A stretch of DNA of 45,063 bases from Patescibacteria group bacterium (GTDB taxonomy: Bacteria > Patescibacteriota > Minisyncoccia > UBA6257 > 2-01-FULL-56-20). Of the stretch, positions 9,648 to 15,406 are shown piece after piece. Each line of letters begins with the position of its first letter. The stretch's first letter is position 1. The notes beneath the pieces were generated by a model. It did not search any database and was not told the DNA's origin. It saw nothing but the letters and a program-made list of their open reading frames with translations. The stretch covers positions 1 through 45,063 of the forward strand of contig JBBUBW010000012.1 of NCBI GenBank assembly GCA_038058095.1. The letters run 5' to 3'. A program made the translations under genes and the position numbers.

Positions 9648-10913
9648 TTAAGAAAAATACAGTACTTTTCGGGATTTTAGACAATCGGCGGCGTATAAAT
9701 ACGCTCCGGCGGACCAGGCTTGGTAGGGAGAGGATGAGCCCTCAAGCTTGCCGGTTTTGCCGTCGAGCCATTCGTGGAATTGCCATTCCCCTTTCACGCC
9801 GAGGCGTTCAAAAGTGCTTGAATGTTCGAGTTGATCGAGTGGTCGCCCGAGAGAATTTGCTTTGGCTAGGAGTTCGAGTTCTTTTTGGGCTTTGTCGAAT
9901 TTTTTCATTTTAACTAAAACAACTACATAGAAACCGCCGATCATCGGCCAGATGCCCGCGTTTAGATAGTGGTACGCCTCGCGGGCTTCACATGCGTCGA
10001 AATATGAGTGCCATTCTTTATCCCCTTTTCGTATGGGCGGATAGATGGCCTTGCAGGGATAAGGGCGGTTGATTTTGCTTTTGTCGATATAGTTTAGAAT
10101 TTTATTCGCGATTTTTGGCGTGGCGAGACCGGTTACAATGGCTAAAAGATTGCCGAGGGTGTCAAACCAACTTTCCTGTTCTTTTTCTTTGGGTCCGTGA
10201 GATTTCCAAGCCCAAGGGCGATAGTAGCCGAGTTTTGAATCATAAAGTGAAAGATATTTTTCAATTTCGCCATTGACCACCTTTTTTAGATGCTCGGCTT
10301 GTTTATTTTTGCCGTACATTTTCAGAACGCCGTAGTAGAGAGCTTCGGTGTTTATGACTCGGCCGTATTTGTGCGGGAAGGCGTCTTCCCAGTCCATCGT
10401 TGGTTGTTGGACTAATAAGCTATCTTCGTTTGGGTCTTGATATTCGAGCCAAGTGAAGGCCGATTCAATGTTGCGCTTGTATTTTTTCAGTAAGGATTTA
10501 TCTTTGTAGCTTTCGGCGAAGACTTGCTGGCCGACGAGATACCAAAGAGTGGAATCAATGGAATTAAAAGTGACGTCCGAGCGACGTTCGGTGTTATAGG
10601 AGCCCACGGCGTTTGGGATTTGGCCGTGTTTGGATTGGTTTTGGGATAAAAGCTGAATACTCTTTAAAAAAGCAGTCTTCAGCTTTTGACTTATAGCATC
10701 GAACTTACGACTTACAACACTTAACGAGGCGACTCCTAAGCCAGTAATCATGCTATCGCGTGCCCAAGTGGCTTCGTAGCCGCCGGGAAGGCCGGAGGCG
10801 TAAAAGCCGGTTTTTTTGGCGCAGTGCATGAGAACCTCAATTGCCTTTTGGCAAGCAATTTCGGTTACGTTCGATTTGTTCGAATGTTGGAGTGCTCGAG
10901 TATGTGACTTCAT
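9648..10913 (-). CDS. Six-hairpin glycosidase (GH100 neutral invertase / amylo-alpha-1,6-glucosidase-like)
   Basis: WARDS, DSTLWY, DWED, YHYLNAGIWP, FHEWLDG, QAWSAG motifs. Confidence 0.85.
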   Translation of the reverse strand: MKSHTRALQHSNKSNVTEIACQKAIEVLMHCAKKTGFYASGLPGGYEATWARDSMITGLGVASLSVVSRKFDAISQKLKTAFLKSIQLLSQNQSKHGQIPNAVGSYNTERRSDVTFNSIDSTLWYLVGQQVFAESYKDKSLLKKYKRNIESAFTWLEYQDPNEDSLLVQQPTMDWEDAFPHKYGRVINTEALYYGVLKMYGKNKQAEHLKKVVNGEIEKYLSLYDSKLGYYRPWAWKSHGPKEKEQESWFDTLGNLLAIVTGLATPKIANKILNYIDKSKINRPYPCKAIYPPIRKGDKEWHSYFDACEAREAYHYLNAGIWPMIGGFYVVVLVKMKKFDKAQKELELLAKANSLGRPLDQLEHSSTFERLGVKGEWQFHEWLDGKTGKLEGSSSPYQAWSAGAYLYAADCLKSRKVLYFS

Positions 10914-10939
10914 AGATAAATTATAACATTATTTCAACG

Positions 10940-10964
10940 AAAAACCGCCTAGGTTGGCGGTTTT
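10940..10964 (-). terminator. Intrinsic terminator overlapping the stop of the 91-aa gene
   Basis: AAAACCGCC-TAGGTT-GGCGGTTTT inverted repeat. Confidence 0.75.
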
Positions 10965-11224
10965 AAGTCGTTGTACGTGGGGATGATTTGCAGAAGTTGG
11001 TAGACGAAAGTGAGTCCCACGATTATAAGGAGAGGTGCCTTGAGTGGGTCAAGGCTCCCTTGAATGTACAACACCAATGCCGTAAGTGCGATACCCGCAA
11101 TTCCAATCGAGAAGGAAATTCCTGCGGCTACGAGCGTTGTACTGCTATTACTTTTGATAACCCTGCGATAAATCGCGCAAGATTCAGCAATTAGTGCGAC
11201 AGAAATCAAAATCGTGACTAGCAT
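10949..11224 (-). CDS. Small hypothetical membrane protein (3 TM)
   Basis: 91-aa hydrophobic ORF with AAGGAG SD before the ATG and its own terminator. Confidence 0.7.
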   Translation of the reverse strand: MLVTILISVALIAESCAIYRRVIKSNSSTTLVAAGISFSIGIAGIALTALVLYIQGSLDPLKAPLLIIVGLTFVYQLLQIIPTYNDLKPPT

Positions 11225-11295
11225 ATGCTCTCCTTTTCTGGAAAGACGGGGTTTGCTGATTTAATTTATATCAGTTTAATTTAATTTTTTCAAAT

Positions 11296-11328
11296 AAAGA
11301 AAACCGCCCGGTGCGAGGCACGGGCGGT
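11296..11328 (-). terminator. Intrinsic terminator
   Basis: ACCGCCCG(G)TGC-GAG-GCACGGGCGGT hairpin followed by TTTCTTT on the minus strand. Confidence 0.75.
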
Positions 11329-11358
11329 GATTGATTTCTTCAGCCGACTCCATAGGGG

Positions 11359-11514
11359 CTATGGTAGTAAAAACATACCTACTACCCCTACTGACGCAAG
11401 AATCGCGCCTATGATCAGCCATTTGTGACCTTCGAGGTCGTCCATTGAGTGGATGCAAAAGAAAAACCCCACAATAACGAGGACCCCTCCCCACCACGAC
11501 TGCGGTGTTAGCAT
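11359..11514 (-). CDS. Small hypothetical membrane protein, 51 aa (2 TM)
   Basis: Start moved to ATG 11514 (MLTPQSWW...) behind an AAAGGAG SD; two hydrophobic helices; terminator downstream. Confidence 0.65.
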   Translation of the reverse strand: MLTPQSWWGGVLVIVGFFFCIHSMDDLEGHKWLIIGAILASVGVVGMFLLP

Positions 11515-11580
11515 AAAACTCACTCTCCTTTCGTGAATTGTCACAAACACAATAGTCACGTGATTGCCTTTGTCTAGATT

Positions 11581-11652
11581 CTAAAAAGATTTTACCTCTT
11601 CGAGAGCTAAACGTGCAAGTAGATATGAAATAGTGGATTCGGTGCTTTGGTT
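11581..11652 (-). pseudogene. Orphaned duplicate of the glycosyltransferase 3' end
   Basis: Translates NQSTESTISYLLARLALEEVKSF* versus NQGAESTISYLLARLALEEIKQSS* at 11992-12066. Confidence 0.9.
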
Positions 11653-11953
11653 ATCTTTTGGATTTTTCAATAGCAATAAGCCTTTTTTCAAATGATTCAA
11701 GGCGGTTTTCAAATTTACTTATTACGTGTTCCATAATTGCCCTCACGGCATTTAAGATGTCGTGGTTGCTTTGTTTAATTTCATGTATTTCTTCCATTAT
11801 TCGCTCAAATCGTTCATCTATCAGAGCAAATCTTTCATCAATTTTGACGAACCTTTCATCGATTTTATCAAATCTTTTATTAACGCGCGAAAACTCCTGC
11901 TGGGTTATTTGAGCTAGTCTATCAAGAGTCATTTTTGATACCTTAGTTTTCAT
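11651..11953 (-). CDS. Hypothetical coiled-coil protein
   Basis: 100 aa with heptad repeats RFDKIDE-RFVKIDE-RFALIDE-RFERIME; TTGACA-16-TAAAAT promoter 7 nt before the ATG. Confidence 0.8.
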   Translation of the reverse strand: MKTKVSKMTLDRLAQITQQEFSRVNKRFDKIDERFVKIDERFALIDERFERIMEEIHEIKQSNHDILNAVRAIMEHVISKFENRLESFEKRLIAIEKSKR

Positions 11954-11991
11954 AAAGTTAATTTTATGCCCGAAACCTAGGTTGTCAATGG

Positions 11992-14208
11992 TTAGGATGA
12001 TTGTTTAATTTCCTCTAATGCCAACCTGGCGAGCAAATACGAAATAGTGGATTCGGCGCCTTGGTTTAGGTTAATGGCGTATTGGCCCACGCCGTCGTAG
12101 CAACCGCCGCTCACTTCATCGTAGACCATTTGGTTAAGGTGGTTTTTGCCGAGGAACCAGTTGAAGACGCGATAGGCGCCTTTTAGATATTTCTTATCCC
12201 CGGTGGTTTTATACGCCACAACTTTGGTTTCAACCATAGTGGCGGTTTCTTCTGGTTGCTGGTCAAAATAAGCGCGTTTGCGGTTACGGACATACCAGCC
12301 GTTTTGGCCGATGGGGGCGTAGTGTTCTTGCTCGAAGGTAATCTGCCGTAGGAATTCGAGAGTCTTTTTCGCGACTTCGAGATATTTTTCATCTTTTAGG
12401 AGGTCGTAGGCATAGAAAAGGCATTCTGGAAGTTTACTATTTGAATAAGTGAGCTGATCTTCAAACCAATTCCAATCTTCGGCGGCGAAATTTTTATACA
12501 GCTCGACTTGGCGGTCGGCCATTTTTTTGAAATTCTGGGTAAGTTTTTTATTAGGAAAACTTTTTAGGTAATGATAAATGCCAGTCATCGCGAAAGCTGT
12601 GGCTCGAGGTGATTTTATTTTCAGCAAAGGATTGAGCGCCTTCAAGAAAAGTTTTTGAGCTTGATTGCGAATTTTCTCTGGCAAAAGGTTCTCGGAGCTC
12701 GCAAAACCTAAAGCCCAAATGGCGCGGCCTTGGACATCTTCGTCGGTGGTGCCGTCTTTCACTTTTTGATAAGAAACAACGTTAGCAAAGGTGCCGGTGG
12801 GACGTTGGGCAAATTTTACGAAGTTTAAATAGGTTTGAATGATTTTTTCTAAATCTTCAGAGGGGGCGAGTTTGTAATTTTTAACCGCTACGATTATGGC
12901 GCGGGCGTTGTCGTCTAAACTGTAGCCGTAACGTCTTTCGGGTTTGGAATATTTGGCGAAGTGGAAGACGCCAAAGTTATCGGTTAAGCGTTTTAAGTGA
13001 TCGAGTTTAAGTTCGGGAAGTTTGTCTTCTTCGGCTTCGAGATCGGCGAAGTTTTTGTAAAGATTGAAGTAGGAGGTAGCAACGTTTGGCCACGTCATCG
13101 GGCGGGTGTGTTCGTAGGCCTCGCGCCCCATGCCTTTGATACGCTTTTCATCGGGAATGAGTTCGTTTAATGCTTTAGTGATGGCGGAGGCACTTCTTAC
13201 CGGAACTAGATAACCGGTTTGAGGGGCGACTAAAAATCGCGCGTATGAGGTTTCGGTCGCTATTACTGGCCGGCCGCAACCCATCGCGTATGACAAGGTT
13301 CCGCTGACCGATTGGCCTTCATCGACAGTGGGCGAAAGGTAGATGTCAGTCGCTTTAAGGTAAGATGTGAGCTCTCCGAGTTCGAGGTATTTATTGTAAA
13401 AACGAACGTGATTCTCGAGTCCAAGTTTTTGAATTTCTTGGATCAGGGCGTTTCGATAAACTTCCCCTTTTTCCTTTACGATATTCGGGTGAGTGGCGCC
13501 GATAACCAGATAAATAACATTCGGAAACTTGGCAACGATTTCAGGGAGGGCTCGAATGGCGTATTGGATACCTTTGTTTGGACTTAGGAGGCCGAAGGTG
13601 GAAAGAACTATTTTCCCTTCCAGCCCCAATTCGGTTTTGTATTTTTCACTAGGTTCCAGGGGAACCTGCGGAATGCCGTGGGGAATGATGGCTATTTTTG
13701 CTTGAGGAATTTGATATTCTGAAACTAAAACTTTTTCAGAAAGCGAATTCATGACGATGAGCGCTTTTGCTTTTTCGGCAATTAATTGGACGGTGTTTTT
13801 GAGTTCATCGTCGGGATTTTCTAGAACCGAATGGAAGGTGACAACAATAGGTTTTTCGATAACTTGAAGAAATGGAATGAGGTAGTCGCCCCAGCTTCCG
13901 CCAAAAAGACCGAACTCGTGCTGGATGTTTACGATTTTAATTTCAGGGCGGGAGTTAAGTTCTTTCGCTAGGTTAACATAGTAGCCGATTTCGTTTGAAT
14001 TAATCTCGTCGATGACTTTCTTGGTGTTGTAATTATAGAAGTTGGTCGGGTTTTCTTTAAGGGCGACGATTCGGGACTTGACCGCTGGGTTGAATTTGTG
14101 ATCGAAGGCGTTCGTAATATCTTGGGTAAAAGTGGCAATACCGCACTCTCTAGGCGGGTAGGAGCTTATATGAACAATATAATTCGTCTTTTTATCGAAC
14201 GGCTGCAT
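11992..14208 (-). CDS. GT4 glycosyltransferase fused to a C-terminal six-hairpin glycosidase-like domain
   Basis: SSYPPRECGIATF, QHEFGLFGG, SGTLSYAMGCGRPVI (GT4); GYSLDDNARA, FDQQPEE, NLNQGAEST (C-terminal domain); start placed just after the upstream stop, alternative start 14247. Confidence 0.9.
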   Translation of the reverse strand: MQPFDKKTNYIVHISSYPPRECGIATFTQDITNAFDHKFNPAVKSRIVALKENPTNFYNYNTKKVIDEINSNEIGYYVNLAKELNSRPEIKIVNIQHEFGLFGGSWGDYLIPFLQVIEKPIVVTFHSVLENPDDELKNTVQLIAEKAKALIVMNSLSEKVLVSEYQIPQAKIAIIPHGIPQVPLEPSEKYKTELGLEGKIVLSTFGLLSPNKGIQYAIRALPEIVAKFPNVIYLVIGATHPNIVKEKGEVYRNALIQEIQKLGLENHVRFYNKYLELGELTSYLKATDIYLSPTVDEGQSVSGTLSYAMGCGRPVIATETSYARFLVAPQTGYLVPVRSASAITKALNELIPDEKRIKGMGREAYEHTRPMTWPNVATSYFNLYKNFADLEAEEDKLPELKLDHLKRLTDNFGVFHFAKYSKPERRYGYSLDDNARAIIVAVKNYKLAPSEDLEKIIQTYLNFVKFAQRPTGTFANVVSYQKVKDGTTDEDVQGRAIWALGFASSENLLPEKIRNQAQKLFLKALNPLLKIKSPRATAFAMTGIYHYLKSFPNKKLTQNFKKMADRQVELYKNFAAEDWNWFEDQLTYSNSKLPECLFYAYDLLKDEKYLEVAKKTLEFLRQITFEQEHYAPIGQNGWYVRNRKRAYFDQQPEETATMVETKVVAYKTTGDKKYLKGAYRVFNWFLGKNHLNQMVYDEVSGGCYDGVGQYAINLNQGAESTISYLLARLALEEIKQSS

Positions 14209-14209
14209 G

Positions 14210-15259
14210 TTAAAATGTATGCGTTTTGGCCTTGGTGACGATTTCACTGACGAGCTCTTTTAAACTAACCTTAGCGACAGCGATGAATTTGTCGGCGGCG
14301 CCGTAGTAGATGTAGAGATCATCACCGAAGAGGGCGGTGCCGGTCGGGAAAGTTACGTTTGAAACCAGACCGCGACGTTCCCAATCTTGATCCGGAGAGA
14401 AGAGTGGATAGTGGAGGCGGCCTAAGTATTTCAGCGGATCTTTTTTGCTCACCAGCGCGGCTGCGGCGTGGTAGATGCGATCTTTGTTTAGCTCTTCGAC
14501 TCCATGATAAATTATAAGCCAACCGTGTTTAGTTTCAATAGGCGGAGCGCCGCCGCCGATGTTTCGCGACTCGAACCAGTATTTGTTCTCGAGCACGACG
14601 TATTTGGCTAGATTTTTTAGATACTTGAGCCAATATTCTTTTGATTGAAGCTGCTTAAAATTATCGAAGTAGATGAGCTGGATGTCGGGAAGGATGCGAT
14701 GAAGAAGGGCAAATTTACCATTTATTTTTTTCGGGAAGAGAATGCCGTCTTTTTCCCATAGATAAACGTCTTTGCCACCGTATTCTTCATAATATGACTC
14801 GAACATAAAGTAACGGTCTTTGAGTTTTTCATTGCGGAAGATGTGTCCGACACGATCGTAGGTGATTTTTGGAGTTATTAGTCCTTTTCGGTCGAAGGTT
14901 TTTAAATCTTTACTGGTAGCGTAGGCAGAAAGGGCGTTTTTGCCATCATGTGCCACATAGGTCATATAAAAGGTGTCTCCGATTTTAGAAATTCTAGGAT
15001 CCTCCATCCCCTTCTTCTCATAGGGATATTTGCCTTCTAAAATCGGTTTGTCCCATCGCTCAACAACTTTAGTTGGGCCTTTTAATTTGGCGTAGCCGAT
15101 TGACGAGTTCATACGTTTATCGACAGCTCGATAAAAGACGTGCACAAATTCCCCTTCTTGATAGACGCCGGGATTTAGAACCGAACGATTTTCGAACTGA
15201 TTTTCAGTTGGCGCCAAGACGATGCCAAGCTTTTCAACTTTAACTTTCCCTCGTTGCAT
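14210..15259 (-). CDS. Glycoside hydrolase family 130 protein (close paralog of 8613-9641)
   Basis: VLNPGVYQEGEFVH, GMEDPRI, LHRILPDIQ, GGGAPP, TFPTG, YYGAAD motifs. Confidence 0.93.
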   Translation of the reverse strand: MQRGKVKVEKLGIVLAPTENQFENRSVLNPGVYQEGEFVHVFYRAVDKRMNSSIGYAKLKGPTKVVERWDKPILEGKYPYEKKGMEDPRISKIGDTFYMTYVAHDGKNALSAYATSKDLKTFDRKGLITPKITYDRVGHIFRNEKLKDRYFMFESYYEEYGGKDVYLWEKDGILFPKKINGKFALLHRILPDIQLIYFDNFKQLQSKEYWLKYLKNLAKYVVLENKYWFESRNIGGGAPPIETKHGWLIIYHGVEELNKDRIYHAAAALVSKKDPLKYLGRLHYPLFSPDQDWERRGLVSNVTFPTGTALFGDDLYIYYGAADKFIAVAKVSLKELVSEIVTKAKTHTF

Positions 15260-15332: not shown

Positions 15333-15406
15333 TGCGCCCACTAGGATTTGAACCTAGGACCATCTCCTTAAAAGGGAGCTGCTCTACCGGACTGAGCTAT
15401 GGGCGC
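15333..15406 (-). tRNA. tRNA-Lys (anticodon TTT), CCA not encoded
   Basis: GCGCCCA/TGGGCGC acceptor stem, GCTC/GAGC D arm, CTTTTAA anticodon loop, CTAGG-TTCAAAT-CCTAG T arm. Confidence 0.97.

Follow-up and report, generated by a model that had tools for sequence, protein, structure and literature searches.

Insertion of restriction-modification genes with long duplication of the target was reportedly described by Nobusato et al. in 2000. Furuta, Abe and Kobayashi (2010) document restriction-modification units that lie within such duplications and lack mobility genes; the repeats exceed 30 bp (46-423 bp) and often span a start or stop codon, most cases come from naturally competent species, DNA breakage by the cargo is suggested as a common cause, and a cycle of insertion, amplification and release is proposed, with experimental support for amplification only (PMC2853133). 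Here we report a structure of this kind in a 45,063-nt stretch of DNA (contig JBBUBW010000012.1 of assembly GCA_038058095.1, called the window throughout), which is a complete contig of the 758-kb, 96%-complete genome of a Patescibacteria group bacterium, G000. In it, the 3' end of an intact glycosyltransferase gene (GT) is followed, after a single small gene, by a second, diverged copy of the same gene end. The locus is a real instance of a recurrent, recombinase-less 'end-duplication cassette', of a kind that is known but mechanistically unexplained.

The likeness to long target duplication lies in small addictive units that carry no mobility gene, stand between direct repeats which are single-copy in relatives, and leave the target gene alive; the mechanism is not explained there either. 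The cargo differs: it consists of toxin-antitoxin, coiled-coil, NYN and LAGLIDADG genes, with no restriction-modification genes among them, which excludes the suggested common cause, cutting of DNA by the cargo; the mainly coding-end repeats, the divergence of old repeat pairs (ratio of non-synonymous to synonymous divergence, pN/pS, near 0.12), the arrays and the high density differ as well. The published definition names an insert below 20 kb, the absence of any other mobile-element gene, a direct duplication of more than 30 bp and an empty site in a relative (PMC2853133). The window unit measures 414 nt, holds neither an integrase nor another mobile-element gene, and is bounded by copies of 72 nt.

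Several other systems leave related traces. In E. coli, prophage e14 and phage 21 integrate at the 3' end of icd and leave a displaced icd pseudo-end; there as here one end of a gene occurs twice, with mostly synonymous differences, and a spare end lies downstream. At icd, however, it is the copy on the element side that completes the gene, and e14, being a prophage, encodes an integrase and has a short, defined core, whereas here there are 414 bp without an integrase, many targets without a common core, and tail affinities that point both ways as to which copy came with the insert. Integron cassettes are likewise compact, promoter-poor or single-gene units that form arrays, often contain toxin-antitoxin genes and have a repeat right after the open reading frame (ORF); they differ in that no integrase or attI stands by the arrays described here, that our repeats are the end of the neighbouring gene and not a palindromic attC, and that the window cassette has its own promoter. 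Behind rhs and cdiA toxin genes lie displaced 'orphan' C-terminal modules, where a new gene end with cargo has likewise been placed behind a conserved core and older ends pushed downstream with their homology kept, but those ends are different toxins with matching immunity genes, whereas ours are equivalent housekeeping tails with cargo unrelated to the target. In fungal mitochondria, mobile endonuclease ORFs bring a spare gene end with them, again a selfish gene beside a conserved gene with a duplicated end; one case below, at the head of metG in the relative G004, may be exactly such, although the window cargo and most others are not DNA endonucleases. A literature search conducted mostly outside subscription journals and supplements returned no account of such a footprint around toxin-antitoxin genes or in Patescibacteria.

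The duplicated glycosyltransferase end

The target gene occupies 11992-14247 on the minus strand (751 aa, from the ORF list; Pfam Glycos_transf_1, 69.7 bits against a cut-off of 26.4) and encodes a GT4 glycosyltransferase with a C-terminal (alpha/alpha)-barrel-like domain. Its last 24 codons, NQGAESTISYLLARLALEEIKQSS, form the proximal repeat copy (11995-12066, minus strand, annotated as functional; stop codon 11992-11994) and recur in direct orientation as the distal copy, NQSTESTISYLLARLALEEVKSF* (11581-11652, minus strand, annotated as displaced and decaying). The two copies, each 72 nt long, start 414 nt apart (12066 versus 11652) and agree at 46 of 63 aligned nucleotides, and the longest stretch identical in both is a 16-nt block, CCGAATCCACTATTTC (12041-12056 and 11627-11642, minus strand). 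Over the 15 residues ESTISYLLARLALEE, ten codons differ between the copies, and all ten differences are synonymous. A tblastn search with the last 35 GT residues against the whole 758-kb genome recovered the distal copy at E = 4.7e-7, so the match is beyond chance.

Between the copies lies a single ORF without a Pfam family. A promoter, TTGACA-16 nt-TAAAAT, is predicted at 11961-11988 (minus strand, 11 of 12 consensus positions), and its -10 box ends 7 nt upstream of the ATG of the cargo gene (11651-11953, minus strand, in the ORF list, encoding a 100-aa coiled-coil protein), so the transcript is predicted to have almost no leader; at the other end the cargo TAA overlaps the first codon of the distal copy. 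The G+C content of the cassette is 33.4% compared with 43.0% for the genome, which places it among the lowest 1.8% of the genome's 340-nt windows. A first-pass annotation of the window had described the second copy of the gene end, its 16-bp core, the ten synonymous codon differences and the 414 bp holding a promoter and a coiled-coil gene whose stop overlaps the repeat, and all of this proved exact; its reading as an inserted single-gene unit without an integrase is supported.

The GT tail carries a motif, NLNQGAESTISYLLARL, that is conserved across bacteria and archaea. Its NQGAES residues are kept at 94 of 96 tail-bearing genome loci, the exceptions being one NQGSES and one chance match, and at 42 of 45 metagenome tail loci, where the other three read NEGAES; the genome survey yielded 24 further pattern matches without the motif, and its loci were available with 2-kb flanks in 80 cases and with only 300 nt in 40. 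Second pattern matches at L079, L202, L233, L237 and L240 were judged by eye to be unrelated peptides. In the distal window copy NQGA has become NQST at residues that 140 of 141 homolog tails retain, and because of this GA to ST change the distal copy clearly appears to be the dead, non-functional one and the proximal copy to complete GT. The 16-nt block coincides with the most conserved DNA of the GT tail across the genus (9 sequences compared).

A chimeric assembly, which the first-pass annotation had named as one finding that would overturn its reading, is ruled out. The matching stretch is present in eight runs from two studies, the contigs of four of which were compared; in all four, the entire structure is covered by contigs with 100% identity to the window, including one run without a possible-source flag that nevertheless belongs to one of these two studies.

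Cassettes at other gene ends

The first, middle and last 35 residues of 733 (G000) and 887 (G004) gene-like ORFs were searched against their own genome. C-terminal segments gave 9 (G000) and 15 (G004) downstream matches and N-terminal segments 8 and 11 upstream matches; the middle segments gave few, with 1 and 5 one-part same-strand matches. These raw counts include paralogs and retroelement repeats, and not every row of the scan was inspected. Sixteen cassettes were examined in three genomes of the same genus (G000, G004, and contig C65 of G006), with 11 loci in one 0.89-Mb genome, and the window locus, which the first-pass annotation had treated as a single oddity, is one instance of this recurrent footprint.

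All 16 share one layout: an end copy, a spacer with promoter-like sequence, the cargo, and another end copy. The repeats are 57-184 nt long and lie at the very end or the very start of conserved genes, and in every one of the 16 the cargo gene adjoining the downstream copy is co-oriented with the target. From the cargo stop to the downstream copy the distance was -2, 29, 9, -1, 6, 32, 12, 3 and 0 nt in the nine tail cases measured (median 6). Toxin-antitoxin genes above Pfam cut-offs occur in nine cassettes (HicAB, Doc, AbiEii twice, MNT with a HepT/HEPN-type partner three times, ParE, and a HigB-like toxin); the remaining seven carry coiled-coil genes (three), an NYN gene, a LAGLIDADG gene, small ORFs without a family, and a sub-threshold YoeB/ParE pair. 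No recombinase gene was found in or beside any of the 16 cassettes, and the nine repeats measured, from seven target genes, have no start motif in common. The downstream copy stands in the +1 frame relative to the cargo in six of ten instances, not a significant excess, and a frameshift-fusion idea was dropped.

Besides the window, G000 contains two such loci. At C16 (362-4780, L247) a TrmB-family regulator has its last 19 codons repeated (57 nt, 82% identical) 3.6 kb further downstream, immediately behind a ParE pair, and the island between them comprises the ParE pair, a HepT/MNT pair and three other genes; this TrmB-like target has no ortholog in six same-genus genomes. At C43 (L341) the head of a 277-aa gene is affected: its first 74 nt are duplicated at 93% identity (881-954 and 1643-1716) around an NYN-domain gene, whose stop codon and the true start of the 277-aa gene share an ATGA. 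As a separate observation, a 361-nt non-coding direct repeat (90.6% identical, 3157-3516 and 4176-4529 of G000:C1, L196) surrounds a further NYN-domain gene, which lies immediately behind a gene with Fic-like motifs (by eye); the repeat has no Rfam match.

The largest set comes from G004, which has a cassette at GT and, at C36 (L194, 1-2917), two in series behind a histidine kinase (HK) whose tail is present in three copies. There the kinase (ending at 924) is followed by HicB, HicA, tail copy 2, a 104-aa minus-strand ORF, a 113-aa coiled-coil gene and tail copy 3; copy 2 represents the last ~54 kinase codons and begins at the HicA stop codon. Further tails duplicated in G004 are those of an Mg-chelatase-like ATPase (cargo Doc), a SpoU-domain protein (AbiEii), a 334-aa gene (a coiled-coil gene) and SerRS (MNT and HepT). 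Duplicated heads, some labelled by eye, are those of an rpiB-like gene (MNT and HepT), a gap-like gene (MNT and a HEPN-type protein), a 334-aa isomerase-like gene (three small ORFs without a family), a 268-aa gene (DUF6922 and AbiEii) and metG (C45, L302, 508-3194; a 273-aa LAGLIDADG-domain gene), the last of which resembles the insertion of a homing endonuclease together with a spare gene start. In G006:C65 a HigB-like toxin pair, and after it an 8-codon remnant of the kinase tail, stands behind the histidine kinase that is shared with G004; this HigB-like toxin is 35% identical to the toxin at the GT site of G004.

The GT site itself was compared in G000 and its relatives G001-G006 and G017. 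Full-length GT orthologs occur in 12 of 61 genomes searched and measure 736-739 aa in six genomes of the genus. In seven genomes compared, the stretch from GT to the next conserved gene, an amylo-glucosidase-like gene named GDE, varies from 348 to 1640 nt, holds different small genes in each, and shows no DNA homology apart from the GT tail. G004 has a second GT tail, NQGAESTISYLLARLALEEVKVE*, 616 nt downstream of the first, which begins at the same codon as that of the window; its first 32 nt are identical to the first copy and the remainder has diverged. Its cargo is a 76-aa ORF plus an 81-aa protein, the latter with full-length but sub-threshold YoeB and ParE matches. A single tail copy is present in G002, G003, G005, G006 and G017, which are other species with ~70% DNA identity and different downstream genes; G005, for one, has no cassette here. 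A contig of G001 (L044, G001:C32, 8740-8767) stops inside the 16-nt block, as assemblers do at branches, which proves nothing, and G001 may also have a duplicated tail or represent a mixed population. Among metagenome contigs, one from a ~86%-identical relative has 581 other nt in place of 1210 nt between the GT tail and the next gene (a comparison of lengths only), and a scan for closer relatives yielded a single contig at 96% identity that breaks off ahead of the GT tail.

Divergence of the copies and the probable route of insertion

The repeat pairs fall into young and old. In the young pair on G004 C15 all 57 coding nt are identical and homology runs 28-29 nt beyond the stop codon; on G004 C6, 90 of 97 nt are identical, again extending past the stop; and on G000 C43, 93% of 74 nt are. 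Old pairs are saturated at synonymous sites, with synonymous divergence (pS) of 0.52-0.83, but keep their protein sequence, with pN/pS of 0.11-0.13: the GT pair of G000 (pS 0.81, non-synonymous divergence, pN, 0.10) has a ratio of 0.13 and that of G004 0.12, and the native histidine kinase tail has 0.11 against copy 3 (31 synonymous and 11 non-synonymous differences over 53 codons) and 0.13 against copy 2, with 0.21 between copies 2 and 3. A downstream copy drifting freely after duplication in place would be expected to show a ratio near 0.5, and values far below this mean that both copies of an old pair apparently ended working genes in separate lineages until recently, in agreement with the earlier proposal that the two GT tails evolved apart under protein selection. 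Decay is visible as the GA to ST change in the window, as a single-nucleotide indel in G004 C3 and as 27 nt inserted into kinase copy 2.

The affinities of the window tails point both ways. The proximal tail and ~15 nt after its stop resemble G004 and G006 (31 of 43 nt for the former and 29 for the latter, with CCATT... behind the stop), and the distal tail is nearest G005 (33/43); in G004 the proximal tail matches that of its sister G006 (31/43) and the distal one those of G005 and G002 (40/41 nt at the start). The 91-aa membrane gene further downstream in the window (10949-11224, minus strand) has a homolog behind GT only in G005 among six relatives (37% identity, E = 5e-15). Since the proximal tail resembles G004 and G006 while the distal tail and next gene resemble G005, a later swap of the downstream region may have rebuilt the distal copy. 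The 43 nt that follow the core are nonetheless too noisy for assigning a donor (21-34 of 43). With sequences this short and species at ~70% identity, the insert may still have brought the proximal tail, as the first-pass annotation read it, but the affinities do not show that the unit supplied the replacement C-terminus. Over the whole GT gene, sliding identity against six relatives revealed no switch of nearest neighbour, all being at ~0.70. G004 and G006 are each other's nearest neighbours for GT (0.78 nucleotide identity, up to 0.87 near the 3' end; L038, L039) but not for GDE ~1.6 kb away (0.72), which indicates a recombination breakpoint within the variable GT-GDE region of these two.

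The reading we favour, and regard as probable, is insertion with long target duplication through the cell's own recombination acting on DNA of relatives, without an element-encoded or site-specific recombinase. We infer the following sequence of events. DNA would be taken up from relatives and a small co-oriented cargo inserted by host recombination at a gene end or start, with 57-184 nt duplicated, so that the target gene stays whole and the repeats are at first identical. Afterwards, diverged lineages would exchange DNA with the locus by homologous recombination that takes hold in the conserved end block, so that one copy or part of it is replaced, hence old pairs that differ at the species level and almost only synonymously. 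Where the downstream variable region is swapped with the left crossover in the downstream copy, that copy would come to have a matching left part and a foreign right part; were the crossover to fall in the upstream copy, the cassette would be deleted, and with an addictive cargo such a loss would be selected against. Diverged repeats and addictive cargo together would protect the insert from looping out. Homology-anchored capture of foreign DNA, offered as an alternative by the first-pass annotation, fits the locus better than a site-specific element does.

These conclusions must be tempered by several observations that weigh against them. No true second GT tail was found at the 96 genome or 45 metagenome loci with the motif, so the footprint at GT is rare outside G000 and G004. 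Contigs of the four runs, which drop rare variants, contain no 414-nt joint, empty-site allele of the same strain, circle or tandem form. The left edge of the repeat coincides within 1-3 nt at GT in G000 and G004 and within ~5 nt in the two kinase cassettes, and the cargo ends tightly against the downstream copy, both of which are natural for a dedicated element with defined ends and require extra assumptions under plain recombination, either a slot inherited from a common ancestor or junctions that fall where DNA identity peaks. Large serine recombinases, which could act in trans, number one plus a fragment in G000, six in G004, one in G006 and none in G005. Finally, members of the genus are so dissimilar in DNA (~70% identity) that donors and crossover points cannot be placed.

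A site-specific event, whether of a cargo-only element moved in trans or leaving the stump of a larger integrative element, with the crossover at the 16-32-nt block and a replacement GT tail carried in as e14 does at icd, is the alternative that survives best, and we consider it unlikely. It draws on the sharp left boundary shared by G000 and G004, on the identical block (16 nt in G000, 32 nt in G004) followed by a diverged tail, on the existence of arrays, and on large serine recombinases being more numerous in the genome with more cassettes. One of those in G004 lies 6.5 kb from the kinase array on C36, past an rRNA-like stretch, and the PF00239 matches of G000 are on C37 and C41. The identical block at GT is, however, simply the most conserved tail DNA, the longest identical block that the kinase copies share with the native tail is only 11 nt, and the young repeats, 86-97 nt in length, extend beyond the stop codon and do not resemble serine-recombinase sites. 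Nor is there a recombinase with any cassette, and seven targets without a common motif speak against one site-specific enzyme. The only tyrosine recombinase (PF00589) is a single ~300-aa protein in each of G000 (contig C32) and G004, found in all four genomes searched and conserved across the genus like a Xer protein; the same search returned none on the window contig.

A one-off scar would require a single sloppy uptake event, homologous at one end and illegitimate at the other, that joined two versions of the GT-to-GDE region and involved no mobile cassette. Homology-facilitated illegitimate recombination is known in competent bacteria (PMC3240628), the region between GT and the next gene is different in all seven genomes with DNA homology only in the tail, and the two tails come from different lineages. 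Random fragment ends would nonetheless not yield 16 cassettes built on one plan with co-oriented cargo throughout, a cargo stop at most 32 nt from the downstream copy in all nine tail cases measured, and a boundary repeated at the same target in two species, and we regard this explanation as quite improbable. The deletion remnant of a second, tandem GT paralog is very improbable: only the existence of a second GT-like tail favours it, whereas a second GT is present at none of 10 other orthologous loci fetched from 61 relatives (which equally removes the recent tandem duplication that the first-pass annotation had rejected), the same boundary occurs in two species, and footprints of 18-55 codons exist at unrelated genes. 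Hardly credible, together with the assembly chimera excluded above, is a template/variable repeat pair of a diversity-generating retroelement; G000 does have several such retroelements with repeats at gene 3' ends, but the mismatches between the GT copies also include T>C, C>T, A>C, G>T and A>T and are not confined to template adenines, and no reverse transcriptase ORF lies in 9000-15000. As an observation in its own right, four asparagine-rich template/variable repeat pairs stand at gene 3' ends of G000 (C9 34742-38568, C29 2414-4986, C44 40953-43434 and C28 7476-8592), with reverse-transcriptase-like ORFs (by eye) after those on C9 and C29.

Host recombination with long target duplication, the preferred reading, has wider implications. 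The ultra-small Patescibacteria have few classical mobile elements yet a fast turnover of accessory genes, and recombinase-free addition of cassettes at gene ends, with the target undamaged, would explain part of this flux as well as the toxin-antitoxin pairs found directly behind or before housekeeping genes. Tentatively, one may go further and imagine an integrase-free cassette system in Patescibacteria, in which the conserved first or last codons of housekeeping genes serve as attachment sites by plain homology, small cassettes with their own promoter (toxin-antitoxin pairs, coiled-coil or NYN genes) enter by insertion-duplication in natural transformation and leave as circles by recombination between end copies, and arrays are held by addictive cargo and repeat divergence; if true, it would be in effect an integron without an integrase and a main route of accessory-gene turnover in these tiny genomes. 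The 25-year-old unexplained observation of long target duplication would be extended to other addiction modules, and this extension beyond restriction-modification genes would place the cause in host recombination and selection against loss and not in DNA cutting by the cargo. Saccharibacteria are naturally competent (PMC10187176), and because they are now transformable the idea is directly testable. For annotation, short orphan 'gene-end' ORFs behind small genes would be scars and not genes.

Cargo relatives and surroundings

The 100-aa window cargo is a predicted helical coiled coil (ESM Atlas model with pLDDT, the predicted local distance difference test, of 0.89; 33% G+C) with no Pfam, NCBIfam or PADLOC family at cut-off and with coiled-coil noise as the only matches, ESM Atlas included. 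It is a single gene without a toxin family match and does not qualify as a toxin-antitoxin module. Its nearest relatives are three 91-aa proteins (52-54% identity), and a search of 400 other genomes of the order with one of these as query gave nothing at E <= 1e-8. At the looser limit of E <= 0.01, more distant relatives are encoded by 43 of 125 genomes of the family, often in several copies each, a count to which coiled-coil composition may contribute; viral contigs yielded no relative. The first-pass annotation had proposed looking for coiled-coil homologs flanked by duplicated gene ends; this was the case at 1 of 29 loci only, the kinase array of G004. The 113-aa gene of that array is preceded by TTGACA-16 nt-TAAAAT-6 nt-ATG (L194, 2360-2404), so that in both it and the window cargo a motif of the form TTGACA-16 nt-TAAAAT ends 6-7 nt before the ATG, and both are predicted to be transcribed as leaderless or nearly leaderless mRNAs. 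The recurrence of coiled-coil genes as cargo beside toxin-antitoxin pairs suggests, by analogy, a selfish or conflict-related role for the window cargo.

Downstream of the distal copy, a promoter-like site, TAGACA-16 nt-TATTGT (11549-11576, minus strand; a consensus match only, 9 of 12 positions), is placed after the distal stop as the cassette promoter is after the proximal one. It is followed by a 51-aa membrane ORF (11359-11514, minus strand, ATG at 11514 with AAGGAG upstream) and a terminator-like hairpin (11305-11320). GT is flanked by GH130 phosphorylase genes as well as by GDE, three GH130-like paralogs bracketing the GT-GDE cluster at 7612-9641 and 14210-15259. An Rfam scan of the window returned a tRNA only (15333-15406).

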